NCBI GenBank assembly: GCA_035947475.1
Contig: DASZKB010000061.1
Coordinates: forward strand, 1-27,482
DNA length: 27,482 nucleotides
Direction of reading: 5' to 3'
DNA from: Gaiellaceae bacterium
GTDB lineage: Bacteria > Actinomycetota > Thermoleophilia > Gaiellales > Gaiellaceae
This document shows, piece after piece, positions 1-23,498 of this stretch; positions within the stretch are counted from its first letter, which is position 1, and every line of letters starts with the position of its first letter. Under the pieces are notes generated by a model. It did no database searches and had not been told where the DNA came from. It saw only the letters and a program-made list of their open reading frames with translations. A program made the position numbers and the translations under genes.

Positions 1-1293
1 CTCAGGCTGCTCCCCTTCGAAGGCCTAGGGCTTGCCGTAGTTCCGCTCGTCCAGCACCTGTTCGGCGTTCTCATGGCGGTCGTCCTTTACACGCTCCTTC
101 TCCGCCTCGGGGTCCGAACATGGCTCGCCGCGCTCGCGACCGCGCCCGTGCTCCTGGACTCGTTCCAGCTCAACCTCGAGCAGTACGTCCTCTCGGACAC
201 GTTCTTCCAGCTCCTCCTCGTCACCGGGTGCGCGCTCCTCCTGTGGCGCCGACCGCTCGGCCTCGCCCCGGCTGCGCTCGCGGGGCTCGTGTTCGCCGCG
301 GCCGCCCTCACCCGCACGGTCGGCCTCGCGGCGATCGTCCCGGTCGTGCTCACGGTGTTGTTCCTGCGCGCGGGGCCGTCCCGGGCGCTCGCCCTTCTCG
401 CGTCGTTCGCCCTTCCGCTCGTCGCCTACGCGGCGTGGTTCCACTCGTTCTTCGGCGTCTACGCCCTGAACGGGTACAGCGGACACGTGCTGTACGGGCG
501 CGTGGCGCCGTTCGCCGACTGCACTCAGTTCTCGGTCCCTGCGCGGGAACGCGTGCTTTGCCCAACGCAGCCCGTGGGCGAGCGGCCGTCGGAGAACGAG
601 TTCGTCTGGCGAAAACGGATCTCTCCGATCTACCGCCTGCGGCCGCCGGCCGAGATGACTCGTGACCGGCCCGTGTGGCTCGCGAGGTCGCAGATCGCGG
701 GCGACTTCGCGAGGCGGGTGATCGCGAACCAGCCGCTCGCGTACTCCCGCGCGGTCGGGTCCGATTTCCTCCACGGCTTCGCGCCCGCGCGGACCTCCGA
801 GCCCGGCGACGCGCCCGCCAGCAACTGGGAGTTCCACCTGACGTACCCGGTGTTCGAACCGAAGCTCAACGAAGCGTTCGACGCGCGGGTCGACCGGGAG
901 CTCGCCTCGTTCCTCCGCGCGTACCAGCGCTACGCGTACGCGCCCGGGCCGCTCCTCGGCGCTGCGCTGGTCGTCGGCCTCCTCGCCGCGGTCGGGCTCG
1001 GCCGCGCCAGGTACTCAGGCCTCCGGTCGGCGGCGTTCCTCTTCTCCTCGCTCGCGCTCATCCTCACGCTCGCGCCGGCAGCCGCGCTCGCTTTCTCCTG
1101 GCGCTATCAGCTGCCACAGCTCGTCCTCCTGCCGCCCGCCCTCGCACTCGGTCTCACGGCGCTGACGACGAGGACCGAGGATGACCGGGGGCGCGTTACG
1201 GCGTCGACGCGGCGTCGCGATCCAAGAGCGGCGCCGACCATGTCGGGGTCCGACCTGGCTGGCCGCGCCACGACGCGATCCGGGCGCCGCTAG
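1..1293 (+). CDS. Multi-pass membrane protein, GT-C-like (lipid-carrier-dependent glycosyltransferase family); 5' truncated by the window
   Basis: Frame is open from base 1 (LRLLPFEGLGLAVVPLVQHLFGVL-MAVV...), so the ATG at 73 is internal. Many hydrophobic helices, an acidic luminal-loop motif LLDSFQLNLEQYVLSDTFF, and a large extracellular loop before the last helices. Confidence 0.55.
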   Translation, partial: LRLLPFEGLGLAVVPLVQHLFGVLMAVVLYTLLLRLGVRTWLAALATAPVLLDSFQLNLEQYVLSDTFFQLLLVTGCALLLWRRPLGLAPAALAGLVFAAAALTRTVGLAAIVPVVLTVLFLRAGPSRALALLASFALPLVAYAAWFHSFFGVYALNGYSGHVLYGRVAPFADCTQFSVPARERVLCPTQPVGERPSENEFVWRKRISPIYRLRPPAEMTRDRPVWLARSQIAGDFARRVIANQPLAYSRAVGSDFLHGFAPARTSEPGDAPASNWEFHLTYPVFEPKLNEAFDARVDRELASFLRAYQRYAYAPGPLLGAALVVGLLAAVGLGRARYSGLRSAAFLFSSLALILTLAPAAALAFSWRYQLPQLVLLPPALALGLTALTTRTEDDRGRVTASTRRRDPRAAPTMSGSDLAGRATTRSGRR

Positions 1294-1328
1294 GACGTCG
1301 GTTTGCGCGGTCGCTATCCGGCCACCTT

Positions 1329-1337
1329 TGTTACCCT
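1329..1337 (+). promoter_or_regulatory. Candidate extended -10 promoter (TGnTACCCT) upstream of sqdB
   Basis: TG-T-TACCCT in a short intergenic gap. TANNNT hexamers are rare in this GC-rich DNA. GGAGG RBS at 1387-1391. Confidence 0.4.
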
Positions 1338-1397
1338 GCCGCGTCTGGGCAGGGGGAAATCGCGCGTGCGCGCGCGTCGTTACTTCGGAGGTTGGGT

Positions 1398-2681
1398 TTG
1401 CGAGTCTTGATTTTGGGCGGAGACGGGTTTTGTGGATGGCCAACGTCCCTTCACCTGTCCGCGCGCGACCACGAAGTCACGATCGTCGACAACTTCGCCC
1501 GCCGAAACGCCGACGTCGAGCTCGAGGCGTCGTCGCTCACGCCGATCGCCCCGCTCGGCACGAGGCTCGCTGCCTGGCGGGAGCTGACCGGGCGCGAGAT
1601 CGGATTCCACCGGCTGAACGTGGCCGAGGACTTCGACCGCCTCGTCACTCTCCTCGCCGATCTGCAGCCCGAGGCAATCGTTCACTTCGCCGAGCAACGG
1701 GCGGCGCCGTACTCCATGAAGAGCGCGTGGCACAAGCGTTACACCGTGGACAACAACGTGAACGCCACGCACAACCTCCTCGCGGCGATCGTCGAGTCAG
1801 GCGTCGATGCGCACGTCGTCCACCTCGGGACCATGGGCGTGTACGGGTACGGCGCGGCTCCCGGCGTGAGGATTCCCGAGGGCTATCTGCGCGTGAAGAT
1901 CGAGGCCGAGGACGGAACCGAGGTCGAGCAGGAGATCCTGTACCCGGCGAACGCCGGGAGCGTCTACCACATGACGAAGACGCTCGACCAGCTTCTCTTC
2001 GCCTTCTACAACAGAAACGACGGCGTCCGGGTCACGGATCTCCATCAGGGGGTCGTGTGGGGCACGCAGACGGCCGAGACCCGCCAGGACGACCGGCTCA
2101 TCAACCGGTTCGACTACGACGGCGACTACGGAACGGTGCTCAACCGCTTCCTGATGCAGGCGGCGATCGGCTACCCGCTCACCGTCCACGGAACGGGCGG
2201 GCAGACGCGCGCGTTCATCCACATCCAGGACACGGTGCGCTGCATCGAGCTCGCCGTCGAGCACCCGCCTGAGCCCGACCAGCGGGTGCGGATCTTCAAC
2301 CAGATGACCGAGGCGCACCGCCTGCTCGACCTTGCCGAGCTCGTAGCGCGGCTGACCGGCGCGAAGATCGACTTCGTCGAGAACCCGCGGAACGAGGCCA
2401 GCGAGAACGAGCTGCTCGTGGACAACGGCCAGCTGCTCGCGCTCGGGCTCGACCCGATCACGCTCGAGGAGGGCCTTCTGCGCGAGGTGACCGAGATCGC
2501 GGAGAGGTACGCGCACCGTTGCGACACCGACAAGATCCCGTGCCGGTCGTTCTGGAGGCGACGCGTGGACGGGCGTGCGGCTGCCTCGGCGCCGACGGCC
2601 GCGCCCGCGCAGAGCGCGAACGGAGACGCCGGTGAGGCGTCGCCGGCGATCGCCGCCGAGTTCTCGTCGGTCGCACGCTAG
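1398..2681 (+). CDS. sqdB: UDP-sulfoquinovose synthase (SqdB/SQD1/Agl3 family)
   Basis: Diagnostic motifs GGDGFCGWPTSLHLS, HFAEQRAAPYSM, HLGTMGVYGY, YHMTKTLDQ, TDLHQGVVWG, NRFDYDGDYGTVLNRF and YPLTVHGTGGQTRAFIHI. TTG start at 1398 lies 6 nt after GGAGG. Confidence 0.93.
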   Translation: MRVLILGGDGFCGWPTSLHLSARDHEVTIVDNFARRNADVELEASSLTPIAPLGTRLAAWRELTGREIGFHRLNVAEDFDRLVTLLADLQPEAIVHFAEQRAAPYSMKSAWHKRYTVDNNVNATHNLLAAIVESGVDAHVVHLGTMGVYGYGAAPGVRIPEGYLRVKIEAEDGTEVEQEILYPANAGSVYHMTKTLDQLLFAFYNRNDGVRVTDLHQGVVWGTQTAETRQDDRLINRFDYDGDYGTVLNRFLMQAAIGYPLTVHGTGGQTRAFIHIQDTVRCIELAVEHPPEPDQRVRIFNQMTEAHRLLDLAELVARLTGAKIDFVENPRNEASENELLVDNGQLLALGLDPITLEEGLLREVTEIAERYAHRCDTDKIPCRSFWRRRVDGRAAASAPTAAPAQSANGDAGEASPAIAAEFSSVAR

Positions 2682-2704
2682 CGGGCGCGCTTCAGCGGAC
2701 CGAG

Positions 2705-3670
2705 ATTCCCGACCACGTCCTCGTCACCGGCGGCTGCGGCTTCGTGGGCGCCAATCTGATCCCGAAGCTCCTCGCGCGCGGCCTCACCGTTCGCGTGCTC
2801 GACAACCTCTCGCGCGGGAGTCGCGAGAACCTGGAGGGGCTCGAGGTCGAGATCGTCGAGGCGGACGTCCGCGACTCCGAAGCGGTCGCTCGCGCGCTCG
2901 CCGGGGTCGGCACCGTCGTCCATCTGGCCGCGTACGGGTCGGTCGCGGAATCCGTCGACGAACCGCTCGAGAACTTCGACGTGAACGTTCGGGGGACGGT
3001 CGTCCTGCTCGCCGCGTGCGCCCGCGCCGAAGTGGCGAGCTTCGTGTTCGCCTCGACGGGGGGCGCGCTCGTCGGAAACGCGACGCCGCCCATCGACGAG
3101 ACCACCCTGCCCTGGCCGATCTCGCCGTACGGCGCGAGCAAGCTATGCGGAGAGGCCTACTGCCACGCGTTCGCGGGCTCGCTGGGCCTTCGGACCGTCG
3201 CCTTGCGCTTCGCGAACGTGTACGGCCCGTTCTCGCAGCACAAGCGGGGCGCGGTCACGAACTTCGTGAGGAGCGCGCTTCGCGGCGAGCCGCTCGTCAT
3301 CTACGGCGACGGGCAGGCGTCTCGCGACTTCCTCTACGTCGACGACCTCTGCGACGGGATCTGCGCAGCGCTCGACGCGCCGGTCGACGACGAGGTCGTT
3401 CACCTCGCGTCCGGGAGCGAGACGACGATTGCCCAATTGGCGCGCCTGATCCTCGAGCTGACCGGAGCGGCCGAGACGCCGATCCGCTACGAGCCACGTC
3501 GGCGCGGCGAGGTCGAACGCAACTTCGCGAAGACCGACCGTGCCGCCGCCCTCCTCGGCTTCCGCCCCGTGCATTCGCTGAGAGACGGGCTTCGAAAGAC
3601 GATCGACTGGTACGTCGAGCGCGACCGCCCTCAGCGGGCGGGGACGTCGGCGACGCACAGCACCGACTGA
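2705..3670 (+). CDS. NAD-dependent NDP-sugar epimerase/dehydratase (extended SDR, UDP-glucose 4-epimerase-like); start codon uncertain
   Basis: HVLVTGGCGFVGANL Rossmann motif, ASTGGA, YGASK catalytic YxxxK, FANVYGP, GDGQASRDFLYVDD. The Rossmann motif begins upstream of the first canonical start (2744). ATT at 2705 is the best in-frame candidate start. Confidence 0.82.
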   Translation: MPDHVLVTGGCGFVGANLIPKLLARGLTVRVLDNLSRGSRENLEGLEVEIVEADVRDSEAVARALAGVGTVVHLAAYGSVAESVDEPLENFDVNVRGTVVLLAACARAEVASFVFASTGGALVGNATPPIDETTLPWPISPYGASKLCGEAYCHAFAGSLGLRTVALRFANVYGPFSQHKRGAVTNFVRSALRGEPLVIYGDGQASRDFLYVDDLCDGICAALDAPVDDEVVHLASGSETTIAQLARLILELTGAAETPIRYEPRRRGEVERNFAKTDRAAALLGFRPVHSLRDGLRKTIDWYVERDRPQRAGTSATHSTD

Positions 3671-4347
3671 CCGAAGGGCGGGCGTACGGCCCTCTCGATC
3701 GTCCGGCCGGTCGGAATCACGACGTTGTCGTAGAGCCACACGAGGCGCGGGTCGGGCCGGCCGGCGCCGCCTCTCCGCACGGCGAGCCACCAGGCGAGCC
3801 CGCCCAGGAAGTTGACCGGGCGGACGTCGAGGACTCGGAGCCCTGCTCGCTCGACGGCGGCTCGCATCGTCCGGGGCGTATACCGGCGGACGTGCCCGAC
3901 CTTGCGGTCGAAGTCCCCGTACAGGCGCATGTAGGCCGGAACCCACAGGATCAGCCGCCCGCCGGGCGTCAGGACGGCGGCGAGGTCCCGAAGCGCCTGC
4001 ACGTCGTCCTCGATGTGCTCCACCACGTTCATGGCGACGACGGACTCGACGGGGTCGCCGATCTCGACCCGGCCGGGGAGGCGCACCTCGACGACCTCGA
4101 CGTCGGGGCGGTCGGCGTACCGCTCGCGCAGCCGCCCCAGGCACTCCTCGTCGGCGTCGCTCAGGACGAGGCGATCGCGCCCGCTCGCGGCGAGCTTCTC
4201 GGAGAAGTACCCCATCCCCGAGCCGACCTCGAGCACGGAGCGGCCGAGGTACGGCGCCACGAGGTCGTACTCCCACTGGCGGTACCGCGGCGCCGCCGTC
4301 GCACCGAAGGCGTACTCACATGCGGGCGCGGCCCCCGGACCCGTCAA
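3631..4347 (-). CDS. Class I SAM-dependent methyltransferase
   Basis: VLEVGSGMG motif I, NVVEHIEDD, LTPGGRLILWVPA, GHVRRY. TTG start at 4347 overlaps the ABC ATPase stop (TTGA) and follows GGAGGA. The ORF-track start at 4428 lies inside the ATPase gene. Confidence 0.82.
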   Translation of the reverse strand: MTGPGAAPACEYAFGATAAPRYRQWEYDLVAPYLGRSVLEVGSGMGYFSEKLAASGRDRLVLSDADEECLGRLRERYADRPDVEVVEVRLPGRVEIGDPVESVVAMNVVEHIEDDVQALRDLAAVLTPGGRLILWVPAYMRLYGDFDRKVGHVRRYTPRTMRAAVERAGLRVLDVRPVNFLGGLAWWLAVRRGGAGRPDPRLVWLYDNVVIPTGRTIERAVRPPFGQSVLCVADVPAR

Positions 4348-5147
4348 CCTTCCTCCAGCGCGACCTCGCTCTCGCCGACGTCGAGGAAGCGCGTGTAGGC
4401 GTTGACGACGGTCGCGGAGTCGTCCCACATCGAGACCTGCCCCTTGTGCATCCAGACCGCCTCGGTACAGAGCTCGCGGACGCTCCGGAGGGCGTGGCTC
4501 ACGATGACGATCGTCCGAGACTCGCTGCAGAGCTCGCGCATCTTGTCGAACGACTTCCGCTTGAAGCGCGCGTCGCCGACCGAGAGGGCCTCGTCGATGA
4601 GGAGGATGTCCGGTTCCATGTGCACGGCCACCGAGAAGGCAAGCCGGCCGTACATCCCCGACGAGTACGTCCGCATCGGGAGCTCCATGAAGTCGCCCAG
4701 CTCGGCGAAGGCCGCGATCTCGTCGTAGCGGGCCTCGATCTGGTCGCGCGTGAACCCGGCCGCGAGGCCGCCGAGCACCACGTTCTCGCGACCGGTCAGC
4801 CTCCCGTTGAACCCGACGCCGAGCGCGAGCAGCGTGCTCACGCGGCCGTTCACCTCGACGCGTCCGTGGGTCGGCGGCAGGATCCCGGCGATCGTCCGCA
4901 TGAGCGTCGACTTGCCGGCGCCGTTCATGCCCACGACGCCGAGCACCGTGCCGTGCGGGACCGCGAACGAGACGTCCCGGAGGGCCTCCACCTCGCGGAC
5001 GACCCGGCGCCGGCGCTTGAGCTGCGCGAGCCGTCGCTTCAGCGTCGGTCTCCGCTCGTACGTCGTTCGGTAGGTGACCGAGACGTGCTCGACGCTGATC
5101 GCGCGCGCGTCCGCGGCGAGCTCGCTCGCGTGACGTTCGAGCGCCAT
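4344..5147 (-). CDS. Polysaccharide/teichoic acid ABC exporter ATP-binding subunit (Wzt/TagH-like), with no C-terminal carbohydrate-binding domain
   Basis: Walker A GMNGAGKST, GVGFNGRLTGRENV, signature YSSGMYGRLAF, Walker B ILLIDEALSVGD, H-loop IVSH. Probable start is ATG 5147, 10 nt after the permease stop. Confidence 0.92.
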   Translation of the reverse strand: MALERHASELAADARAISVEHVSVTYRTTYERRPTLKRRLAQLKRRRRVVREVEALRDVSFAVPHGTVLGVVGMNGAGKSTLMRTIAGILPPTHGRVEVNGRVSTLLALGVGFNGRLTGRENVVLGGLAAGFTRDQIEARYDEIAAFAELGDFMELPMRTYSSGMYGRLAFSVAVHMEPDILLIDEALSVGDARFKRKSFDKMRELCSESRTIVIVSHALRSVRELCTEAVWMHKGQVSMWDDSATVVNAYTRFLDVGESEVALEEG

Positions 5148-5157
5148 CGCGCCGCTG

Positions 5158-6036
5158 TCAGAGGCGAACGGCAAACTCTCGCTCCCTCGAGACGAAGAAG
5201 AGCGACCCGACGACGAACGCTGCGGCCGCCCACGCCAGGCCGCCGGCGAGGAAGGCGGGGCTCGGGGCCGCGCCCTGGTTCAGGACGTCGCTCCACGAGG
5301 CGAGCATCGGATAGAGCGGGTTCGCGGCCATGACCGCCGAGAAGCTCTCGGGGACGTCCTGGGCGTAGTAGAGGATCGGAGACGCATACAGCCACAGGCG
5401 GGTCGAGAACGGAAGGAACGACCGGAGGTCGCGGAAGTAGACCTGCGTGGCGGCGAGAAGCATCGTGATCCCGGAGGCGAACACCACGAGGAGCGCCACG
5501 ATCGGGATCGCCCAGAGCAGATGGAGGCCGACGGGAAGCCCCACGATCGCGTGGGCGACGGCGTACACGGCCAGCATCGGGACGAAGCGCATGAACGCCG
5601 TCATCACGGAGGCGAGCGGCAAGAGCGTGCGGGGGAACGCGATGTTGAGGATGAGCCTTCCGCCGCCGACGACCGAGCGCGCGCCGTGCGTGACCGACCC
5701 GGCGACGAACCGGAAAGCGAAGAGCGCCGCCATCAGGTGGAGGAGGAACGTCGGGCCCCGCGTGTCGCCGCGGATGATGCCCACGAGCACGAAATAGGCG
5801 AACACGAGAAGAAGCGGGTTGATGACGAGCCAGAGCTGCCCGAAGAGCGTGTTGTAGTGCTGCTTGCGGAGGTTCGTCCGAGCCAGCTCGACCGCGAACT
5901 CGCGCCGCTGCCAGACGGTCTGTAGATACGGCCAAAGCGGCGGGAGGCCGATGCGGTGCGGCTCGTAGACGTGCCGTTCGGAGAACTCGTCGTCGACGGG
6001 GCGGCGCTCGCTCCGCGTGTCGGTGACAGCGCTCAT
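5158..6036 (-). CDS. ABC-2 polysaccharide/teichoic acid exporter permease (Wzm/TagG-like)
   Basis: LRKQHYNTLFGQLWLVINPLL, FPRTLLPL, VYFRDLRSFLP, LYASPILY, ANPLYPML. About six TM segments, adjacent to the ATPase. Confidence 0.92.
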   Translation of the reverse strand: MSAVTDTRSERRPVDDEFSERHVYEPHRIGLPPLWPYLQTVWQRREFAVELARTNLRKQHYNTLFGQLWLVINPLLLVFAYFVLVGIIRGDTRGPTFLLHLMAALFAFRFVAGSVTHGARSVVGGGRLILNIAFPRTLLPLASVMTAFMRFVPMLAVYAVAHAIVGLPVGLHLLWAIPIVALLVVFASGITMLLAATQVYFRDLRSFLPFSTRLWLYASPILYYAQDVPESFSAVMAANPLYPMLASWSDVLNQGAAPSPAFLAGGLAWAAAAFVVGSLFFVSREREFAVRL

Positions 6037-6872: not shown

Positions 6873-7899
6873 GCACGCGCCTTCCGATCTCCTGCTCGTC
6901 CATCGCGAGGTGCTCGAGGATGGTGTAGCGCTCGGGGCGGGTAGACGGCGCGTGAGCGACCGCTGCGGCGAACTCGTCGTCCGTCAGGCCGAGCTCGCGG
7001 GGCAGCCTCGGGACGCCGTGCCGGCGCAGAGACGCGTCCAGCGTGGGGAAGAGCTCGTCGCCGCGGAGGAACGACGCGAAGAGGGCGCCGGTCGCGACCT
7101 GCTCCCCGTGGGTGGCCTTCGCGGGATAGAGCGCGTCGATGGCGTGCGAGATCTCGTGGCACGCGCCGCTGCACGGGCGGCTCGAGCCGGCCACAGCCAT
7201 CGCGAGACCGCTGAGCACGAGCGCCTCGGCGAGCGCGGTCAGGAACGCGTCCGAGCTCAGGTCGTCCGTCCGGTGGAGCAGCGACTCGGCGCCGGCGCGG
7301 GCGAACGCGGCCGCCAGCCCGTCCACGGTCTCGCCGCGCTCGCGGCTCGCGAGCTCCCAGTCGGCGAGCGCGCTCAGGTTGCTGAGCGCGTCGCCGACGC
7401 CGGACCGCAGCTGCTCAGGAGGACAGCGGCGCACGTAGTCGAGGTCGACCACGACGGCGATCGGGATGTGGACGCCGTACGAGCCCTTGCGCCCGTCGTA
7501 CTCGAGAGAGGCGACCGGCGAGGCGATGCCGTCGTGGGCGAGGTTCGTGGCGACCGCGACCATGGGAAGCCCGGTGAGGCTGGCGGCGTACTTCGCGACG
7601 TCGAGCGTCCGCCCGCCCCCGATCCCGACGACGGCGTCGTACGACTCGTTGCGGAGCGCCTCCGCGAGCTCGAGGGCGGCCTGGAGCGTCCCGCCGTCGA
7701 CGGGGTAGATCCCCGCGTTCTCGAGCGCGGGACGGACCACCCCGACGATCTGCTCGCCCTGGCCCGGGCCGACCACCACGGCGACGTCGCCGTGCGAGGA
7801 GATCCGGCGGTCGCTCAAGAGCGTCGCGAGCGTCGCGACGGCGCCGCTGCCGACTTCGACCGTCAGCGGGCAGGCGACCATTCGGGCTAGTAGCGGCAT
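6844..7899 (-). CDS. sn-glycerol-1-phosphate dehydrogenase-like protein (EgsA/AraM family, DHQ-synthase/Fe-ADH fold)
   Basis: GIGGGRTLDVAKY, TNLAHDGIASP, GVGDALSN, SSRPCSGACHEISHAID and HGEQV (metal-ligand His residues) match EgsA-type motifs. Start ATG 7899 (MPLLARM) overlaps the upstream stop. The 8664 ORF-track start is spurious. Confidence 0.78.
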   Translation of the reverse strand: MPLLARMVACPLTVEVGSGAVATLATLLSDRRISSHGDVAVVVGPGQGEQIVGVVRPALENAGIYPVDGGTLQAALELAEALRNESYDAVVGIGGGRTLDVAKYAASLTGLPMVAVATNLAHDGIASPVASLEYDGRKGSYGVHIPIAVVVDLDYVRRCPPEQLRSGVGDALSNLSALADWELASRERGETVDGLAAAFARAGAESLLHRTDDLSSDAFLTALAEALVLSGLAMAVAGSSRPCSGACHEISHAIDALYPAKATHGEQVATGALFASFLRGDELFPTLDASLRRHGVPRLPRELGLTDDEFAAAVAHAPSTRPERYTILEHLAMDEQEIGRRVHEFVAAFDR

Positions 7900-8618
7900 T
7901 CGATCGCGCGCGCACGCGCGAGGTCGGCGTGGTCGTCGACCTCCACCCAGTCGACCGTCCCGATCGGGGCGGCGTGCACCTCGCCCCCGCGGTCGACGAG
8001 CTCCTGGAAGCCGTCCTCGTAGTAGAGGGAGGGGTCGCGCCGCCACGTCGCCTCGAGAGCCTCGGCGAGCGGGCCGGCCGCCGCGGGCTCGATGACGGCC
8101 AGGCCGATGTACTCGCCGTCGGCGCTCGCCGGGTCGACGTGCTTGCTGATCCGGCGCAGCGTCCCGTCGTCGGAGAGGACGACCTTCATCTCCTCCTCGC
8201 CGAGTGGCTTCTCGCTGTCGACGGCGAGCACGACCGCGGGCCCGCGCGCCTCGAGGAGCGACACCTCGACGCTCGCCGGATGGACGGTGTCGCCGTTCAC
8301 GAGCAGGGCTCCGTCCCGGAACGCCTCGCGCGCGAGCCAGAGCGAGTAGGCGTTGTTCCACTCCTCGGCGCGGTCGTTGAAGACGAGCTCGAGCCGGACG
8401 CCGTGGCGGCGCTCGAGCTCGTCCACGCGCTCGCGGACGTGTGCGGACCCGAACCCCGTCACGACGGCGACGTCGTCGATTCCAACGGAGCGAAGGTTCG
8501 CGAGCGCGCGATCGAGGATCGTCCGCCCGTCCGTCAGCGGCAGGAGGGTCTTCGGGAGCGTCGCGGTGAGGGGGTGGAGGCGCCGGCCGGGCCCGGCCGC
8601 CAAGACGAGCCCGATCAT
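7887..8618 (-). CDS. Sugar/polyol-phosphate cytidylyltransferase (LicC/IPCT-like NTP transferase)
   Basis: LVLAAGPGRRL..PKTLL, WNNAYSL, LLVNGD, EEEMKV, GEYIG, YYEDG, WVEVDDHADL. ATG 8618 forms an ATGA overlap with the upstream gene. Confidence 0.87.
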   Translation of the reverse strand: MIGLVLAAGPGRRLHPLTATLPKTLLPLTDGRTILDRALANLRSVGIDDVAVVTGFGSAHVRERVDELERRHGVRLELVFNDRAEEWNNAYSLWLAREAFRDGALLVNGDTVHPASVEVSLLEARGPAVVLAVDSEKPLGEEEMKVVLSDDGTLRRISKHVDPASADGEYIGLAVIEPAAAGPLAEALEATWRRDPSLYYEDGFQELVDRGGEVHAAPIGTVDWVEVDDHADLARARAIECRY

Positions 8619-9100: not shown

Positions 9101-10899
9101 CGGGCGAGCGCGGCGAGCGTGCGGCCGGCCACCGCGTACGCGGCGGCGACGCCGCCCCAGGCGAGGAGGGCGATGAAGGTGACGCGGGGGTTCCAGATCG
9201 CGGCCGTGACGGCGATGAGGGCGAAGCGCTCGCCGATCGGGAGAACGAGGATCCGCTTGCCCCACCGCGTCCACGAGCGCCGGTCGAGCGCGCCCGCCGC
9301 CGCGACCGCGGAGAGCGCGACGCTCGAGAGGGTGACGCGGCTCTTCGCCGGCCGCTCGGCTGTGCCGCTCGCCGCGCCGGCCCCAGCCGGGACGGCGGAC
9401 GCCGGCGCCGGCGCGACCACCGTCGTCCCGCCCGCGCCTTCGGCCATGGCGAACGCCGCCACCGGGCTCGGCCTCGGTCGGGCGGGGAGATCGATCGTGA
9501 GCGGGGCGTCCTCGGGGTCGTCGAGCGGGAGCGTCGGCTCGATCGCCTCGTGCTGGCGGGCGGCGTAGGCGAAGTCGACCATGTGCCGGAACGTCTGGAG
9601 CGTGACGGCCGCGGCGGCTAGCAGCCAGACGTCGTCGCCGAAGCCACGCGTGGCGCCGATCGCAAGGCCGGCGTAGACGACGTACTCCTTCGACCGGTCG
9701 AAGACGGAGTCGAGCCAGGCGCCGAGCTTCGAGAACGTCCTCGTGTGGCGGGCGAGCTGTCCGTCGACGCAGTCGACCGTGAAGGCAGCGTGCAGGAGCA
9801 CCGCGCCCAGGACGAGGCTGACGCGGGTCCCGACGGCGAACGACGCGGCGGAGGCGACCCCGATCACGAACGACACGGTCGTCATCGCGTTCGGGGTCCA
9901 CCCGCGCCGCGCCGCGAAGCGCGCCATGTATTTCGAGTAGGGGCTCACGAAGAACGTGGTGAAGAACCCGTCCTGCGCCTTGACGGCCGCGTCGAGCGCC
10001 ACGCGGTCCTCGTCGATCTCCTCCATGTCGCTCATGGCGGTCTCCGCCGCTCCGACCGAGAGGGGCGTCGCGTAGAAGAAGCCCCTGAGGCTGTTTCGCG
10101 AGAGATGGACGCCGCTTCTCACGAGGCCGACGAGGAGGAGCGCGACGACGTCCTCGCGCGCCGCGCGCACGCGCAGCGAGACCTCGGCCTCGGTATCCGG
10201 GTCCAGCCGAATCGACGGCGGGAGCTCCATCGGGTCCGGAAACTCGCCGGTCTCGCGCTCGATCGCCATCCGCCAGAGCCGCGCGCGCCAATCCGCGACG
10301 GTGAGCGCCATCTGGTCGTCCCAGCGGTTCGGTCGCGGCTCCGTCACGAGCTCGGCGAACTCGCGTGCGGCGGCGACGAGCTGCGCCCGGTCGTGCGGAT
10401 CGACCTTCAGAAAGCCCAGGAAGTACGAGTTCGGAACCCCCACCCGGTGGTACGGCGACCCCGCGCTGACCACGCGTCCGCGCACGATCCGGACGCGGTA
10501 GGACCACAGCCCGCGCCCGTGCGACCCGGTGCCGAGGATCCCGGAGACGATGCGGGGGTCGGCGAGAAGCCCGGCCAGCGCCTCGCGGTGCGTGACGGCG
10601 TGCGCGTTGCCGACGAGCAGGCGGCCGGGCGCATCCGCCGCTATCCCTGCGACCGCGCGAAGGTCGTCCGCCTGGTCTTCCGACTCGACCACCGTGACGT
10701 CGACGCCGGCGCCGCGCGCCGCCTCCTCGACCGCTTCCCTCCACCCGGGTCGCGTCACGACCCAGGCGCGGCGCACGTCGAGGCTCTCGAGCGTCGCAAG
10801 AAGACGGACGAGCAGCGTCGAGCCGCGGGCCGGAAGCGCCGCGGCCGGGCGGCCGTCCGCGGCCGCAGCCGTAGCGAAGAGAAGCGCGCTGGTCGTCAC
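9097..10899 (-). CDS. CDP-alcohol phosphotransferase with an N-terminal degenerate nucleotidyltransferase-like domain
   Basis: KAQDGFFTTFFVSPYS, WTPNAMT, and a complete motif DCVDGQLAR-x8-GAWLDSVFD, then LPIGERF. The N-terminus resembles an NTP-transferase fold but lacks LAAGxGxR. GTG start at 10899 follows GAGGAG. Confidence 0.82.
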   Translation of the reverse strand: MTTSALLFATAAAADGRPAAALPARGSTLLVRLLATLESLDVRRAWVVTRPGWREAVEEAARGAGVDVTVVESEDQADDLRAVAGIAADAPGRLLVGNAHAVTHREALAGLLADPRIVSGILGTGSHGRGLWSYRVRIVRGRVVSAGSPYHRVGVPNSYFLGFLKVDPHDRAQLVAAAREFAELVTEPRPNRWDDQMALTVADWRARLWRMAIERETGEFPDPMELPPSIRLDPDTEAEVSLRVRAAREDVVALLLVGLVRSGVHLSRNSLRGFFYATPLSVGAAETAMSDMEEIDEDRVALDAAVKAQDGFFTTFFVSPYSKYMARFAARRGWTPNAMTTVSFVIGVASAASFAVGTRVSLVLGAVLLHAAFTVDCVDGQLARHTRTFSKLGAWLDSVFDRSKEYVVYAGLAIGATRGFGDDVWLLAAAAVTLQTFRHMVDFAYAARQHEAIEPTLPLDDPEDAPLTIDLPARPRPSPVAAFAMAEGAGGTTVVAPAPASAVPAGAGAASGTAERPAKSRVTLSSVALSAVAAAGALDRRSWTRWGKRILVLPIGERFALIAVTAAIWNPRVTFIALLAWGGVAAAYAVAGRTLAALAR

Positions 10900-10921: not shown

Positions 10922-12208
10922 TCAGCGCTGAGACCCGACGGTAACGGGCGGCGCGTCCGAAGGCGTCGGCGGACGGTCCGGCCCCGGGGGGACGCCGGCA
11001 AGGTCGGAGAGGAGGTCGGCCCACTCGCGCCCGATCTCCTCGAGGCTGTAACGGCGGGCGGTCTCGAGCGCGGCGTCCCCCATGCGCCGGCGCTTCTCGT
11101 CGTCCTCGATCACCTCGAGGAGCGCCGAGGCGAAGGCGTCGACGTCGCCGTTCGGGACGAGCAGGCCGTTCTCACCGGGCGCGATCACCTGGCGAGGGCC
11201 GGTCGGGCAATCGAAGCTCACCACCGGCAGCCGCTTGCTCATCGCCTCGATGAGCACCATCGGAAGCCCCTCGAACCGCGAGCTCAGCGCGAAGACCGAC
11301 GCCTTCGCGAGCTCGCGTCCGAGCTCCTGCGTCCTCGGGATGAGCGCGACATGGTTGTAGAGCTCGTGCTCGAAGACGAGCCTCCGGAGCTCGCCGAGCT
11401 TCTCGCCGCTCCCGTAGATGCGGAGCTTCCACTCCGGGTGGCGCTCGACGACGCGGGCGAACGCCGGGATGAGCCGGTCGAAGCCCTTCTGCGACGTGAG
11501 GCGCCCGGCGGCGAGGACGAGCGGGTTCGAGAGCGTCGAGACGCCGCCTTCGAGCTCGGGCAGCGCGTTCGGGATGCAGACCATCCGAGTGGCCGGCGGA
11601 AGGACGTCCGCGTAAGTGCCGAGGTCGTCCTCCGTCAGGACCGCGAGCGCGTCGAGCTTCGGGTAGCGGCGCGAGATGTCCCCTGCCAGCCCGGCCCTGT
11701 AGGTGCGGAAGTTCAGGTGCTCCTGGCCGACGGTGATCACGTTCGGCGGGGCGAGCTCGGCCGAGATGAGGTTGAGCGCCGGGCGGGTCGCGATCAGGAC
11801 GCCGTCCGAGAGAGAACGCAGCTTTCGGGCGAGCACGACGTCGGTCCAGAGCGACGACGCTCGGTAGGAGTGGTCCTGCGGGTGGACGAGGACGCTCGGG
11901 ACCTTTCGCAGGAGGGCGTCGAGCCGCCCCCGCGGACCGCTCGCCTCGGGCGTCTGGTCGTCGAGGGTGGTGACCTTCACGCCGGGCGGAAACGGGAAGA
12001 ACGGCTCGCGGCGCCTCCGGAGGACGCTGATCACCTCCACGTCGTGGTCGCGCGCCAGGTAGCCGGCGAGGTTGAGGACGGTCCGGATCGTTCCGCCCAT
12101 CCCGTAGGCGTGCACGATCAGGAAGTGGATCTTGAGCGGGCGGTCGAGCGGCGAGCGCGTGGCGCGCGGCCGCTCGTCGCGGCCCCGGCGGAGCGACCGG
12201 AAGGCGAG
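10922..12208 (-). CDS. GT4 glycosyltransferase (AmsD-like/TagE-like) domain; no canonical start, probably the C-terminal part of a frameshifted gene that begins at 12807
   Basis: LKIHFLIVHAYGMGGTIRT, GQEHLN, AAGRLTSQKGFD, SSRFEGLPMVLIEAM, FDCPTGP. The first beta strand (KIHFLI) lies upstream of GTG 12115, and there is no ATG/GTG/TTG back to the in-frame stop near 12390. Confidence 0.85.
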   Translation of the reverse strand, partial: LAFRSLRRGRDERPRATRSPLDRPLKIHFLIVHAYGMGGTIRTVLNLAGYLARDHDVEVISVLRRRREPFFPFPPGVKVTTLDDQTPEASGPRGRLDALLRKVPSVLVHPQDHSYRASSLWTDVVLARKLRSLSDGVLIATRPALNLISAELAPPNVITVGQEHLNFRTYRAGLAGDISRRYPKLDALAVLTEDDLGTYADVLPPATRMVCIPNALPELEGGVSTLSNPLVLAAGRLTSQKGFDRLIPAFARVVERHPEWKLRIYGSGEKLGELRRLVFEHELYNHVALIPRTQELGRELAKASVFALSSRFEGLPMVLIEAMSKRLPVVSFDCPTGPRQVIAPGENGLLVPNGDVDAFASALLEVIEDDEKRRRMGDAALETARRYSLEEIGREWADLLSDLAGVPPGPDRPPTPSDAPPVTVGSQR

Positions 12209-17640: not shown

Positions 17641-18909
17641 GTGAAGATCCGCTTCCTCATCGCGAACGCCTACGGCGTCGGCGGAACCATCAAGGCGACC
17701 TACAACCTCGCGGGAGAGCTGGCGAAGCGCCACGACGTCGAGATCGTGAGCGTGCAGAAGCACCGCGACTCACCCGCTTTCGGAGTTCCTCAGGGCGTCC
17801 GGTTGCGGGCGCTCGTCGACCGCTCGCCGCGCGCGAAGCGCGCCGACGAGACGCGGGCAGGGGCCCTCCCGCGCGCGAAGGGGAAGCTGAAGGCGTGGGC
17901 GCGGGAGCGGCCGAGCCGCGTCGTCCACCCGGGGGACTTCCGCTACAAGAACTTCAACCTCTTCACCGACCTCCGGCTCGTCCAGTTTCTCCGCTCGCTC
18001 GACGACGAGATCGTGATCGGGACGCGCGCGGGGCTCAACCTCGCGGTTGCCCGGTTCGCCCGTCCCTCGGCGATCCGCGTGGGGCAGGAGCACCTGAACA
18101 TGACGAAGTACGGCCAGGAGATCCAAGCGGCCTTCCGCAGGTACTACCCGCGGCTCGACGTCTATTCCGCGCTCACCCAGGGCGACGCGGACGCCTTCTC
18201 CGAGCTGCTCGGCCCGGACGCGCGCGTCGTCTGCATCCCGAACGGGGTTCCGGATGTCGGCGGCGCGCGCTCCTCGACCGAGGGGAACGTCGCGATCGCG
18301 GCCGGGCGACTCACCCCCCAGAAGGGCTTCGACCGGCTGCTACCGGCCTGGGTGGAGGTCGCGCGCAAGCACCCCGACTGGGAGCTTCGGATCTTCGGGG
18401 GCGGGAAGCTCAGGCGGCGCCTGGAGAGGCGGATCGAGGAGCTCGGGATCGGCGACACCGCACGGCTCATGGGGTACACCGACGAGCTGCCCCAGGAGAT
18501 GGCGAAGGCGGCGTTCTACGTCATGAGCTCGCGCTTCGAGGGCTTCCCGATGGTGCTGCTCGAAGCGATGCGCTGCGGGCTCCCGATCGTGAGCTTCGAC
18601 TGCCCGAACGGCCCGCGCGACCTCATCAGCCACGGGCAGGACGGCTTCCTCGTCCCCGACGGCGACGTCGACGCCCTCGCGGCGGCGATGATCGAGATGA
18701 TCGAGCTCGGCGACGCGCGGCGCTCGTTCGGCGACGCCGCGCTCGAGAAGGCGAAGCAGTACGAGATGCCCGCGATCTCCCGGCGGTGGGAGCAGCTTCT
18801 GGAGGAGATCCTCGAGGAGCGCCGGCGCTCCCGCGCCCTCACGCGAGCGCCGGCCGCACGCTCCTCCACAGGAGGATCAGCGCGCCGGGGAGCGCCGCGA
18901 GGACCGTGA
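17641..18909 (+). CDS. GT4 glycosyltransferase (AmsD-like), paralog of 10922-12208
   Basis: KIRFLIANAYGVGGTIK, GQEHLN, AAGRLTPQKGFD, SSRFEGFPMVLLEAM, FDCPNGP. Confidence 0.9.
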   Translation: MKIRFLIANAYGVGGTIKATYNLAGELAKRHDVEIVSVQKHRDSPAFGVPQGVRLRALVDRSPRAKRADETRAGALPRAKGKLKAWARERPSRVVHPGDFRYKNFNLFTDLRLVQFLRSLDDEIVIGTRAGLNLAVARFARPSAIRVGQEHLNMTKYGQEIQAAFRRYYPRLDVYSALTQGDADAFSELLGPDARVVCIPNGVPDVGGARSSTEGNVAIAAGRLTPQKGFDRLLPAWVEVARKHPDWELRIFGGGKLRRRLERRIEELGIGDTARLMGYTDELPQEMAKAAFYVMSSRFEGFPMVLLEAMRCGLPIVSFDCPNGPRDLISHGQDGFLVPDGDVDALAAAMIEMIELGDARRSFGDAALEKAKQYEMPAISRRWEQLLEEILEERRRSRALTRAPAARSSTGGSARRGAPRGP

Positions 18910-19798
18910 CGACGTAGAAGACGACGCCGGTGGCGAAGGCGGCGTCGGCCGAGACGTCGAACTGGGCCAGGAAGGCGACGAAGAACGCCTCGCGGACTCC
19001 GAGGCCGTTGATCGTGAACGGCACCATCATGACGAGGAAGAGGAGCGGCCCCAGGAGGAGGTACGGAAGCGGCGACATCTCCACTCCGATCGCTTCTCCG
19101 CACAGCCAGATGGCCCCGAACCGAGGGAGCTGGACGGCGAGCGTCGCGAGGAGGACGAGGCCGAGAACGCCGGGGCGCGACCGATAGTCGTGCATGGCGA
19201 GGTAGAGGCTCGAGAGCGGACGTTCGAGCCGGACGCGGCGTCCCAGCGGGAAGACGGTCCCGACGAGATGCCGGCTCGTCCGCCGCGAGAAGAGCAGCAC
19301 CGCGACGAGTGCGAGGACGGCGGCGAACGCGAGCTCGACCCAGACGATGAGCCGAAGGTTCTCGAAGCGGCCCGCGACGACCGCGAGCCCGAGGGCGACC
19401 ATGAGGAGCGTCCCGGCCGCCCCGACTGCCCGCTCCATGAGCACCGCGGCAACCGTCTCGCCCTTCACCGTCGGCCGCCGGCGCGCGTGCTCGACGATCC
19501 GGACCGCGTCGCCGCCGATCGTGGTCGGCAGCACCTGGCCTGCGGCGTAGCTCACGAAATAGAGCTTCGTGAGCCAGCCGAGCGGCTCGTGGATCCCCTT
19601 GGACGCGAGTAGGAGCTGCCAACGCCACGACATTCCCCACGTCGTCACGAGGAAGATCGCGAGGGCGGCGACGAGGTACGCGGGGTTGCTCGACGCGATC
19701 AGAGAGGCGGTCCGATCGACGTCGACGAGCCAGAGCAGGTACGCGACGAGGCCGCCGCTGACTGCGATCTGGAGAGCGAGGCCCAGAGGACGCCTCAC
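18839..19798 (-). CDS. Lysylphosphatidylglycerol-synthase-TM/UPF0104 flippase-like membrane protein
   Basis: SWRWQLLL, GQVLPTTIGGDAVR, AAVLMER, VPFTINGLGVREAFF. GTG start at 19798. The 769-aa ORF-track call extends antisense through the GT2 gene. Confidence 0.82.
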   Translation of the reverse strand: MRRPLGLALQIAVSGGLVAYLLWLVDVDRTASLIASSNPAYLVAALAIFLVTTWGMSWRWQLLLASKGIHEPLGWLTKLYFVSYAAGQVLPTTIGGDAVRIVEHARRRPTVKGETVAAVLMERAVGAAGTLLMVALGLAVVAGRFENLRLIVWVELAFAAVLALVAVLLFSRRTSRHLVGTVFPLGRRVRLERPLSSLYLAMHDYRSRPGVLGLVLLATLAVQLPRFGAIWLCGEAIGVEMSPLPYLLLGPLLFLVMMVPFTINGLGVREAFFVAFLAQFDVSADAAFATGVVFYVVTVLAALPGALILLWRSVRPALA

Positions 19799-19805
19799 GG
19801 CGGCG

Positions 19806-19811
19806 AGGCTA
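19806..19811 (-). promoter_or_regulatory. Candidate -10 (TAGCCT) 7 nt before GTG 19798; leaderless
   Basis: One of two back-to-back TANNNT hexamers in a 54-bp divergent gap. Confidence 0.45.
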
Positions 19812-21603: not shown

Positions 21604-22218
21604 GTGATCGACCAGTTCCACCGCCTGTACTACCACTCGCCGAGACGGACCTGGAAGAACACGCGCTTTCTCGGCGTCCCCGTCTGGAAGAGCCCGCTCG
21701 ACCTCTGGGTCTACCAGGAGCTCGTCTACGAGGTTCGTCCCGACGTCATCGTCGAGGCGGGGACGAAGTTCGGGGGGAGCGCGTACTACTTCGCGAGGCT
21801 CTTCGACCTGCTCGGCCACGGCGAGGTGGTGACCATCGACGTGAAGGAGCAGCCGAACCGGCCGGAGCACCCGCGCATCACGTACGTGACCGGCTCTTCG
21901 ACGGACCCGGCCGTGGCCGAGCGCGTCGACGCTCTCGTCGCGGGCCGGAAGCCGCTCGTCGTCCTCGACTCGGCTCACAAGCGCGATCACGTTCTCGAAG
22001 AACTGCGGATCTGGGGCGCGCGCGTCCCCGTCGGGTCGTACGTGGTCGTCGAGGACACGCACGCCGACGGCCACCCGGTGACGACGAACTTCGGCCCCGG
22101 GCCGTGGGACGCCGTCGAGCTCTTCCTCACCGAGAACGATGCGTTCGAGGTCGACACCTCGCGGCACAAGTTCTTCTTCACCTGGAACCGGCGCGGGTAC
22201 CTGAAGCGGGTGTCGTAG
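21604..22218 (+). CDS. CmcI-family (rhamnosyl-type) O-methyltransferase; may start at CTG 21439
   Basis: FLGVPVWKSPLDLWVYQEL, PDVIVEAGTKFGGSA, VVLDSAH, GSYVVVEDT, GPGPWDAV. The frame stays open and coding-like upstream, to the GT2 stop and beyond. Confidence 0.83.
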   Translation: MIDQFHRLYYHSPRRTWKNTRFLGVPVWKSPLDLWVYQELVYEVRPDVIVEAGTKFGGSAYYFARLFDLLGHGEVVTIDVKEQPNRPEHPRITYVTGSSTDPAVAERVDALVAGRKPLVVLDSAHKRDHVLEELRIWGARVPVGSYVVVEDTHADGHPVTTNFGPGPWDAVELFLTENDAFEVDTSRHKFFFTWNRRGYLKRVS

Positions 22219-22239
22219 CGCGGCGTGCGCCTGCCGCGC
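22218..22239 (+). terminator. Possible U-less hairpin terminator after the CmcI gene
   Basis: GCGCGGC-(8 nt loop)-GCCGCGC directly at the stop codon, followed by a -10-like TATCGT (22246-22251) for the next gene. Confidence 0.3.
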
Positions 22240-22265
22240 CGCCTCTATCGTTTACGCGGCTCCCG

Positions 22266-23498
22266 GTGAGGGTCCTCTACTTCGATCCCAAGTTCCTGAC
22301 GCCGCGCCACTCGGCGCCGACGCGCGCGTACTCGCTGGCGCGCCATCTCGTGGAGCGGGGACACAGCGTCACGATGGTCGCGCGGAACCCGAGCTGGCTG
22401 GACGTGTCCGCGAACGGGCGTCGGCGCAGCCCCGTCCTCCGCGAGCGCGTGGACGGCATCGACGTCCTCTGGACGAAGATTCCGTACGACCAGAGCTTCT
22501 CGAAGCGGAAGCGGCTCTTCTCCTACGGGACGTACGCGGCCGTTGCGAGCGTCGTCGCCGCGGGAGCCGCGCGCCCGGACGTCGTCTACGCCTCGTCGAC
22601 GCCGCTGACCGCCGGTGTCCCCGGTGCTGTCGCTTCCCGCCTGAAGGGCGTCCCGTTCGCCTTCGAGCTCCAGGACCTTTGGCCCGCCGTTCCAGCCGCG
22701 CTCGGCTTCCTGAACGGGCGGCGCGAGCTCGCGGCGGCCGAATGGCTCGAGCGGCGGCTCTACGAGAGCGCCGACCGGCTCGTCGTCTGCAGCGAGACGG
22801 TGCTGGAGGACCTCGCCAGGCGCGGGATCCGGCGCGAGAAGCTCGTCCTCGTTCCGAACCTGAGCGACGTCGATCTCTTCCACCCCGACGCAAGCGACGA
22901 GGGGTGGCGAGCACGCCTGGGCCTGGCAGGGAAGCTGGTGGCCCTGTACTCGGGATCCATGGGGGTCGCGAACGGCGTGTACCAGCTCGCCGATGCGGCC
23001 GCGGCGCTTCGTCGCTCGGGCGACGACCGGGTCGCGATCGTGGCCGTGGGAAGCGGAAGCGAGCGGGCCGCCCTCGAGCGGCGCGTCGCGAGTGAGGGCC
23101 TCGACAACCTCGTGGTGCTCCAGCCGGTCGCCCGCGAGGAGATGCCCGGCCTGGTCGCTTCGTGCGACGTCACCCTCACCGTCTTCGCGCCGAACCCGAT
23201 CCTCGCGCTCAACTCCCCGAACAAGTTCTTCGACTCGCTCGCGGCCGGAAAGCCGGTCGTCGTGAACGTCGACGGCTGGCTGCGGCGGCTCGTCGAGGAG
23301 AACGAGGCGGGCGTGTACGTCCCCGCGGGCGACGCGGAGGGCCTTGCGAGCGGCCTGAGGTCGCTTGCCGAGCGCCCCGAGCACCTCGCCGAGATGGGGC
23401 GAAACGCCCGCGCGCTCGCGACCCGCGAGTTCGCGCGCGACCTTCTCGCGGACCGGCTCGCGGCCACTCTGGAGGACCTTGCCGCCCGCGGGCGCTGA
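22266..23498 (+). CDS. GT4 glycosyltransferase (WbuB-like)
   Basis: TRAYSLARHL, YASSTPL, FELQDLWP, YSGSMGVAN, NSPNKFFDSLAAGKPVV. GTG start at 22266. Confidence 0.88.
   Translation: MRVLYFDPKFLTPRHSAPTRAYSLARHLVERGHSVTMVARNPSWLDVSANGRRRSPVLRERVDGIDVLWTKIPYDQSFSKRKRLFSYGTYAAVASVVAAGAARPDVVYASSTPLTAGVPGAVASRLKGVPFAFELQDLWPAVPAALGFLNGRRELAAAEWLERRLYESADRLVVCSETVLEDLARRGIRREKLVLVPNLSDVDLFHPDASDEGWRARLGLAGKLVALYSGSMGVANGVYQLADAAAALRRSGDDRVAIVAVGSGSERAALERRVASEGLDNLVVLQPVAREEMPGLVASCDVTLTVFAPNPILALNSPNKFFDSLAAGKPVVVNVDGWLRRLVEENEAGVYVPAGDAEGLASGLRSLAERPEHLAEMGRNARALATREFARDLLADRLAATLEDLAARGR

Follow-up and report, generated by a model that had tools for sequence, protein, structure and literature searches.

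A sqdB cassette next to envelope-polymer genes in a Gaiellaceae bacterium and its proposed role in decorating a cell-surface polymer with sulfoquinovose

We analysed contig DASZKB010000061.1 of a Gaiellaceae bacterium (assembly GCA_035947475.1) over its whole length of 27,482 nt, here called the window. The contig belongs to a metagenome-assembled genome (MAG) of an uncultured actinobacterium of soil type, with 1.37 Mb in 254 contigs, which is 64% complete and has a GC content of ~71%; by SqdB, its named relatives are Thermoleophilia-type Actinomycetota (Solirubrobacteraceae, Gaiellaceae and Thermoleophilaceae). Third-position GC statistics together with Pfam and NCBIfam scans gave 26 genes in the window. 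The first three, all on the + strand, form the cassette studied here: a gene for a membrane glycosyltransferase (GT) of GT-C fold (1-1293), the 5' end of which is cut by the contig start, with ~95 residues missing; sqdB, for UDP-sulfoquinovose synthase (1398-2681); and a gene for a GalE-like 4-epimerase of the extended short-chain dehydrogenase/reductase (SDR) type (2705-3670). A preliminary description of this DNA had placed sqdB between a GT-C-like membrane protein and an NDP-sugar epimerase, with no SqdX- or SqdD-type sulfolipid synthase gene adjacent, and had suggested that sulfoquinovose, or an epimerised sulfosugar derived from it, goes into a surface glycan and not into a lipid. Codon-position GC statistics and Pfam confirmed this arrangement, and the adjacent absence of SqdX and SqdD holds for the window. 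Here, we set out the evidence suggesting that sulfoquinovose in this organism probably decorates a cell-surface polymer.

The sqdB gene starts at a TTG (1398) that sits six bases after GGAGG; an alternative TTG lies at 1392. Residues 2-390 of SqdB align with residues 11-394 of the Arabidopsis SQD1 structure 1i24 (E 1.9e-94), a full-length match that includes the SQD1-specific insertions in the SDR fold. Moreover, the protein is 62-73% identical to cyanobacterial SqdB proteins, including that of Prochlorococcus, in which a GT4 gene directly follows sqdB, and 63% identical to the SqdB heading the sqdB-sqdD operon of Sinorhizobium meliloti. The catalytic residues of SQD1 are Thr145, Tyr182 and Lys186, and a His, an Arg and a Met are essential in Agl3, their replacement being inactivating (PMC4388408). 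The window SqdB has the NAD site G8-D-G10-x-x-G13 and keeps H96, R101, T145, M146 and Y190-H191-xx-K194, with T145/Y190/K194 as the triad. As judged from the sequence, the product of this enzyme is very probably UDP-sulfoquinovose.

The score of the window SqdB on the NCBIfam model NF041015 (UDP-sulfoquinovose synthase) was 326.8 bits, below the cut-off of 575 bits, and recombinant SQD1 and Agl3 have low activity in vitro, the mechanism of sulfur transfer in vivo being unsettled (PMC4388408). Both observations would suit an enzyme that stops at UDP-4-keto-glucose-5,6-ene or adds another nucleophile, such that the product would be another modified hexose. However, the cut-off was passed by one control genome alone and by no SqdB in the relatives searched, suggesting that NF041015 is tuned to the archaeal Agl3 type and that the low score reflects the model and not the protein. 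Moreover, every residue with a demonstrated essential role in Agl3 or SQD1 is retained, the identity to S. meliloti SqdB is 63%, and sulfate-reduction genes lie beside the cluster in relatives. We consider such a different product highly improbable.

A second SqdB type is present in the class, in G028, G032 and 21 other genomes, and is 43-48% identical to the window SqdB. In locus L014 (G028:C6, 9649-12832), this type scores 497 bits on the Agl3-type model and has a Pro at the position of R101 of the window protein; a DUF2304-GT2 fusion follows it, with a gene of the epimerase lineage described below, a gene for a Wzx-like flippase and phosphodiesterase-family genes nearby. G028 carries both SqdB types. 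In locus L030 (G057:C12), the SqdB frame at 9359-10549 loses the alignment of ~70 residues in the middle of the protein, including the catalytic Thr region; two frameshifts or a fault in the assembly may explain this.

As queries for a sulfolipid synthase, we used SqdX and SqdX-like proteins encoded beside sqdB in Prochlorococcus, another cyanobacterium, Deinococcota, Verrucomicrobiota, Pontibacillus, Curtobacterium and Pseudomonadales. These proteins are mutually 34-51% identical across six phyla, and the two checked by Pfam are GT4s. In tblastn searches of the organism's own 64%-complete assembly, the queries gave generic matches to GT4 C-terminal regions alone (at most 80 bits) and S. meliloti SqdD, a GT8 protein, gave no match. 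In four 93-96%-complete genomes with the same sqdB type (G241, G028, G195 and G149), SqdX queries scored 61-85 bits at best and SqdD was not found. The window contains three GT4 genes, in agreement with the preliminary description: GT4 a (10922-12115, - strand), GT4 b (17641-18909, + strand) and GT4 c (22104-23498, + strand). In a maximum-likelihood tree (LG+C20) of 11 SqdX and SqdX-like proteins, the window GT4s and GT4s of relatives, the 11 proteins formed one group with support 91/96, and all three window GT4s were outside it and were rejected as SqdX candidates. The preliminary description had proposed both a genome search for SqdX and SqdD and a phylogeny of the GT4s against SqdX; because no SqdX or SqdD was found and the GT4s lie outside the SqdX group, both tests favour a surface-glycan fate.

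Instead, UDP-sulfoquinovose could be used for a sulfoquinovosyl membrane lipid, either sulfoquinovosyl diacylglycerol (SQDG) or another sulfoglycolipid, made by a non-orthologous transferase, the wall-polymer neighbourhood being incidental. The window SqdB is in the same clade as SqdB of SQDG producers, sqdX could sit in the missing part of the 64%-complete genome, and lipid glycosyltransferases of GT-A fold are known. However, neither SqdX nor SqdD was found in the near-complete relatives with the same sqdB type either, and SqdX, where present, is easily recognised, given its conservation over six phyla. Moreover, sqdB is tightly and repeatedly linked to genes for GT-C enzymes, which use lipid-linked donors outside the membrane. 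A lipid fate therefore appears improbable, and the non-lipid fate in a surface glycan is supported by the absence of SqdX and SqdD, the position of the GT4s in the tree and the envelope-glycosylation context of the genes in relatives.

Several observations on GT4s and sulfolipid operons were made during these searches. GT4 a and GT4 b are paralogues (47% identity, support 100/100) on opposite strands and 5.5 kb apart, and GT4 c pairs with its orthologue in G241. A well-supported GT4 clade outside SqdX adjoins sqdB in Solirubrobacterales-type genomes (L082 1219-2433, L032 11395-12663 and L012 8021-9217); this clade may represent a different, direct UDP-sulfoquinovose transferase. The protein encoded at 9262-10425 of L044, considered as cyanobacterial SqdX on account of its size and position, is a sulfur-transport protein by Pfam; it was rejected and kept out of the tree, and its lack of tblastn matches in the organism's own assembly carries no weight. 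In S. meliloti (L017), the unannotated open reading frame after sqdD (7169-8020), the SqdC candidate, encodes an SDR protein of the 'Epimerase' family and, thus, an SDR accompanies SqdB in a sulfolipid operon too. The corresponding record, CP090106.1, is filed as 'plasmid pSymB' and has 3.7 Mb with tolQR, ruvAB and ligD around sqdB; it looks like a chromosome filed as a plasmid.

For the membrane protein encoded at 1-1293, Pfam gave a weak PMT match and nothing more. We built an alignment of its GT-C family, with 51 members, and folded P0124, the closest full-length relative, which is 78% identical to the window protein in this alignment. The predicted model had a pLDDT of 87.8 and a pTM of 0.86, and the first 21 PDB matches of this model in Foldseek were all GT-C enzymes. 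On the basis of this model, the window membrane protein is of the GT-C transmembrane fold. D77, in the motif D-S-x-x-Y, is conserved in at least 90% of the 51 family members, and the motif, as placed at the level of whole helices, lies in the loop just after the helix aligning with the first transmembrane helix (TM1) of Pmt4 and ArnT. GT-C enzymes have their catalytic acid in this first extracytoplasmic loop, and D77 may hold that position. We propose that the protein is an extracytoplasmic sulfosugar transferase.

The epimerase gene encodes an extended SDR protein with the motifs GGCGFVG, FASTGG and YGASK and the S/T-Y-K triad (Pfam Epimerase, 3e-59 when read from 2636). Its best solved match is the Thermotoga UDP-hexose 4-epimerase 4zrm (E 4e-61), it is also close to the Thermus protein 2p5u, and its score on the curated GalE model TIGR01179 is below the cut-off (147 vs 262 bits). 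The start at 2744 given in the preliminary description was not upheld: the first GTG comes only after the GxxGxxG motif, and no ATG, GTG or TTG is present between the upstream in-frame stop and this motif (window 2636-2750). The ATT at 2705 lies six to seven codons ahead of LVTGG; L005, L006, L008 and L009 have it too, and G241 has ATC. Because the codon is conserved in relatives whose flanks have diverged, this ATT is likely the start codon of the epimerase gene, a rare choice. In relatives, automatic annotation begins at the later GTG, dropping the NAD motif of the epimerase.

The distribution of the epimerase was examined in a sample of 251 genomes of the same class. The epimerase lineage (E<1e-70) is present in four of these genomes, each time beside sqdB of either type, and other GalE-like paralogues are present elsewhere in the organism's own genome. 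It is therefore not a housekeeping copy, and a dedicated role in the sulfosugar pathway is likely for the same two reasons. Epimerases matching the sqdB-linked reference set at 41-55% lie beside sqdB in nine other loci, such epimerases being found near sqdB in Alpha- and Gammaproteobacteria and Nocardioidaceae, and 0 of 14 SqdX-type loci had an epimerase label. The strict linkage to sqdB fits an epimerised sulfosugar without proving it. The S. meliloti SqdC candidate gave no more than a weak match at the SDR level (28% identity to the epimerase over 129 residues), and on this ground the epimerase was rejected as an SqdC orthologue.

Close orthologues of the GT-C protein (E<1e-100) are present in three of the 251 genomes and are all encoded adjacent to this sqdB type. 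Because all three GT-C carriers and all four epimerase carriers have sqdB alongside, the adjacency is not due to chance. The closest relative in which the upstream genes are available, the P0124 contig, has a partial gene followed by genes for a GT2 (309 aa), the GT-C protein (528 aa), SqdB, the epimerase and a methyltransferase, and from the GT-C gene onward this order is identical to that in the window. G241 belongs to the same family and is 93% complete; its order is GT2, a DUF6077 membrane protein (670 aa), SqdB, epimerase, methyltransferase and ABC exporter; language-model features of the DUF6077 protein, the counterpart of the GT-C protein there, lie near AftA-type GT-C clusters, a lead only. 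In L010 and G028/L015/L023, a block of genes for a small GT2, an LPG_synthase_TM-like protein and a GT-C protein lies next to sqdB in varying order, and the GT-C proteins of these blocks are 57-60% identical to that of the window. Family f10 has sqdB, GT2, LPG_synthase_TM and a PIG-V-like GT-C in G070, and sqdB, GT2 and a PIG-V-like GT-C in G058. The context of the sqdB module in relatives is consistently envelope glycosylation.

Two further components recur in these modules. The GT2 is present in the P0124 contig, G028, G241, G149, the f10 genomes and 21 of 80 metagenome loci, and among solved structures it is most similar to three polyprenyl-phosphate glycosyltransferases, namely dolichol-phosphate mannose synthase, ArnC and GtrB. 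LPG_synthase_TM-like genes lie within the module in L010, L015, L023, L033 and L115-L117, and the database protein P0241 joins LPG_synthase_TM and this GT-C in one chain. The 80 metagenome loci were found by scanning for the wider GT-C-like family with the family alignment, the same scan with a single GT-C protein as query giving no matches. Of these loci, 23 have sqdB, 21 have the GT2 and none has SqdX; GT2 and sqdB occur together in 21 of the 23 sqdB-bearing loci, and the succession epimerase, GT-C, GT2, SqdB recurs. Of the 15 loci in which the flanks reach at least 3 kb to either side, 7 contain sqdB. The link between GT-C and sqdB is strong and not exclusive.

Related pairs of sqdB and GT2 are also found in Rubrobacterales, Saccharibacteria and Gammaproteobacteria. 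Two cultured strains carry sqdB together with a GT2 of the polyprenyl-phosphate type, Rhodanobacter ginsengisoli KACC 11762 (L052) and Saccharomonospora sp. CUA-673 (L040), and the 6-kb flanks of sqdB in both contain no SqdX-type GT4; R. ginsengisoli also has an LPG_synthase_TM-like gene and a 50%-identical epimerase. Genes for ComA (phosphosulfolactate synthase), 3'-phosphoadenosine 5'-phosphosulfate (PAPS) reductase and ATP sulfurylase lie beside the sqdB cluster in a Gaiellaceae MAG (L009, 6280-9467) and in G241 (L025, 16962-19900), a few kb away in the latter, and L009 also has adenosine 5'-phosphosulfate (APS) kinase. From its position, the set appears to provide sulfite specifically for the two enzymes nearby that consume it; ComA, PAPS reductase, ATP sulfurylase and APS kinase were not found in the assembled part of the organism's own genome. 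In a variant from Nocardioidaceae and Gaiellaceae (L047, L050, L070, L075 and L009), sqdB lies near Sulfotransfer_2, a 248-aa GT2, a 591-aa GT4 and the epimerase, with a 914-aa GT8 protein in L009 and L075; a GT-C was not labelled by the reference set in these five loci.

The window beyond the cassette encodes what appears to be a system for making and exporting a glycopolymer. A class I methyltransferase gene (3631-4428, - strand, identified by Pfam) is convergent with the epimerase gene, with an overlap of 40 bases at the 3' end of the latter. It heads a long minus-strand operon with genes for an ABC-2 exporter (ATPase 4344-5174 and permease 5158-6036, both - strand; Pfam ABC_tran and ABC2_membrane), two CDP-alcohol phosphotransferases, glycerol-1-phosphate dehydrogenase, a nucleotidyltransferase and a GT4. 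Further to the right are genes for two sulfotransferases, methyltransferases, two GT4s, an LPG_synthase_TM-family membrane protein, a TarS-like GT2, and Bac_transf and Wzy_C proteins. The ABC-2 transporter is a candidate exporter of the acceptor polymer. The position of the methyltransferase gene is shared by L005, the P0124 contig and G241, and the ABC exporter adjoining the cassette is kept in L005 and G241. A scan of 1200-4500 for promoters and terminators gave none exceeding the shuffled expectation. The LPG_synthase_TM-family protein of the window (18839-19810, - strand; Pfam 2.1e-40) is a possible flippase of lipid-linked sugars, but it is of another subfamily than the LPG_synthase_TM-like proteins of the sqdB modules in relatives, has no BLAST similarity to them and is encoded 15 kb away from the cassette.

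With this gene content, a Leloir-type GT4 or the TarS-like GT2 of the locus could use UDP-sulfoquinovose in the cytoplasm and place the sugar in the repeating unit of the polymer before export, in which case the GT-C enzyme would be a mere neighbour that acts on another lipid-linked sugar. The sulfosugar would still end in a surface glycan, by another route. Besides the three GT4s and the TarS-like GT2, the window encodes an initiating transferase (Bac_transf) and a Wzy_C protein that would fit such a pathway; in other lineages sqdB lies beside non-SqdX GT4s (the L082/L032/L012 clade) or beside the set of 248-aa GT2, 591-aa GT4 and GT8 with no labelled GT-C, and part of the wider GT-C family is not linked to sqdB. 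By contrast, the close GT-C orthologues lie beside sqdB in every class genome that has one, the GT2 accompanies sqdB in nearly all sqdB-bearing GT-C loci (21/23), and the cassette stands apart on the + strand, with the remainder of the locus running towards it. We regard cytoplasmic use as unlikely, although less so than a lipid fate.

On balance, we favour the explanation that the + strand cassette is the visible part of a lipid-carrier-dependent system for sulfosugar decoration. SqdB would make UDP-sulfoquinovose. The epimerase might convert UDP-sulfoquinovose to its C4 epimer before transfer, which we hold to be possible with the odds against it, or it might balance the supply of UDP-hexoses. 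A GT2 of the DPM1/ArnC/GtrB type, predicted from the relatives to be encoded just upstream of the contig start, would load the sulfosugar onto polyprenyl phosphate. The lipid-linked sugar would then be flipped, the candidate flippase in relatives being the LPG_synthase_TM-like protein; that this family flips polyprenyl sugars is an assumption, and on PF03706 as a flippase working with glycosyltransferases we found nothing pertinent in the literature searched, the coverage of which was incomplete. Finally, the GT-C enzyme would attach the sugar on the outer side of the membrane. As acceptor, the likeliest candidate would be a sulfated and methylated glycopolymer with glycerol phosphate, for which the adjoining operons would encode the synthesis and the ABC-2 transporter would serve as exporter. 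Because the cassette stays by the methyltransferase and the ABC-2 exporter in L005, the P0124 contig and G241, the polymer exported by the adjacent operons would be the most economical choice.

Particular to the window are the PMT-like GT-C variant, the sqdB-linked epimerase with the ATT start, and the module for glycerol-1-phosphate and CDP-alcohols together with two sulfotransferases. A more specific and tentative version of the favoured explanation, which has a modest chance of being correct in all its parts, is that the epimerase makes UDP-6-deoxy-6-sulfo-galactose (the C4 epimer), a nucleotide sulfosugar of which we know no description, and that this sugar or sulfoquinovose is placed on polyprenyl phosphate and attached by the GT-C enzyme to a teichoic-acid-like polymer of archaeal-type glycerol-1-phosphate, which would bring together the charges of sulfonate, sulfate ester and phosphodiester.

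Several observations weigh against lipid-carrier-dependent decoration or limit the support for it. As a result of the contig truncation, the GT-C copy in the window is without the N-terminal segment bearing the conserved acidic loop, and the specificity for donor and acceptor cannot be read from its sequence. The partner GT2 and the module flippase were found neither on the contig nor elsewhere in the assembly and, for this organism, are predicted from relatives; a search of the assembly for the GT-C N-terminus, the partner GT2, the module flippase and genes for sulfate activation gave only two unrelated GT2s (31-33% identity) on other contigs. Given the 64% completeness of the genome, the absence of sqdX leans on the near-complete relatives. 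Moreover, this sqdB type is present in 13 genomes of the class, and 10 of them are without a close GT-C orthologue at the threshold used above (E<1e-100), and because 8 of the 15 well-flanked metagenome GT-C loci have no sqdB nearby, the wider GT-C family is not sulfosugar-specific by itself. Finally, neither bacterial glycans containing sulfoquinovose nor polyprenyl-phosphate sulfoquinovose were found in the incompletely covered literature that we searched, so that the explanation has no precedent there. The synthase itself is an ordinary member of its family; the combination of genes is new relative to that literature.

Sulfoquinovose ranks among the most abundant organosulfur compounds of the biosphere, and its biosynthesis is tied in textbooks to the sulfolipid of photosynthetic membranes, with one archaeal exception in N-glycans. 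If the favoured explanation is true, abundant soil Actinomycetota (Thermoleophilia and others) would have a new class of sulfonated envelope glycoconjugates, the sulfur cycle of soil would have a non-phototrophic source of sulfoquinovose, and an anionic, C6-sulfonated sugar would be a new donor type for three-component glycosylation systems. The idea is directly testable in R. ginsengisoli KACC 11762 and Saccharomonospora sp. CUA-673, which are both cultured and hold related modules.

The proposed system can be compared with four known ones. In the SQDG pathway (SQD1, and SqdB of cyanobacteria, Sinorhizobium and Rhodobacter), the synthase is a clear orthologue of the window protein and shares its catalytic residues; however, the partner SqdX (GT4) or SqdD (GT8) was not found here, and the neighbours in the window are genes for envelope glycosylation and not lipid genes. 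The window epimerase resembles the GalE-type 4-epimerases (4zrm and 2p5u) in being an extended SDR of ~320 residues with GxxGxxG and the S/T-Y-K triad, and differs from them in its score below the cut-off, its lineage found only with sqdB in the class sample and its probable ATT start.

In three-component systems (GtrA/GtrB/GtrC, ArnC/ArnEF/ArnT, CsbB/GtcA/YfhO and GacI/GacJ/GacK/GacL), a sugar is loaded onto polyprenyl phosphate by a DPM1-like GT2, is moved by a flippase and is then attached by a GT-C enzyme to a polymer that has already been exported. The predicted logic here is the same: the GT2 of the relatives matches dolichol-phosphate mannose synthase, ArnC and GtrB, and the window protein has the GT-C fold. 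By contrast, the GT2 is not visible in the window, the flippase candidate in relatives is of the LPG_synthase_TM family (MprF-flippase-like) and not GtrA, Wzx or ArnEF, and the GT-C partner differs by lineage (PMT-like, DUF6077 or PIG-V-like). Moreover, a dedicated SqdB would supply the sugar, a hexose sulfonated at C6 and possibly epimerised.

To our knowledge, the N-glycans that depend on Agl3 are the sole established non-lipid use of UDP-sulfoquinovose. In that case, the sugar joins an oligosaccharide carried on dolichol pyrophosphate, a step that the usual model places on the cytoplasmic side. Agl3 of Sulfolobus acidocaldarius provides UDP-sulfoquinovose for the N-glycans of the S-layer (PMC4388408). 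The Agl3-type model gives the window SqdB 327 bits only, and the Agl3-like proteins in the class are those of the second SqdB type. Agl3 is archaeal, whereas the context here predicts a monosaccharide on polyprenyl monophosphate that would be transferred outside the membrane by a GT-C enzyme; in both cases, the same class of enzyme would feed a protein or surface glycan, not a lipid.

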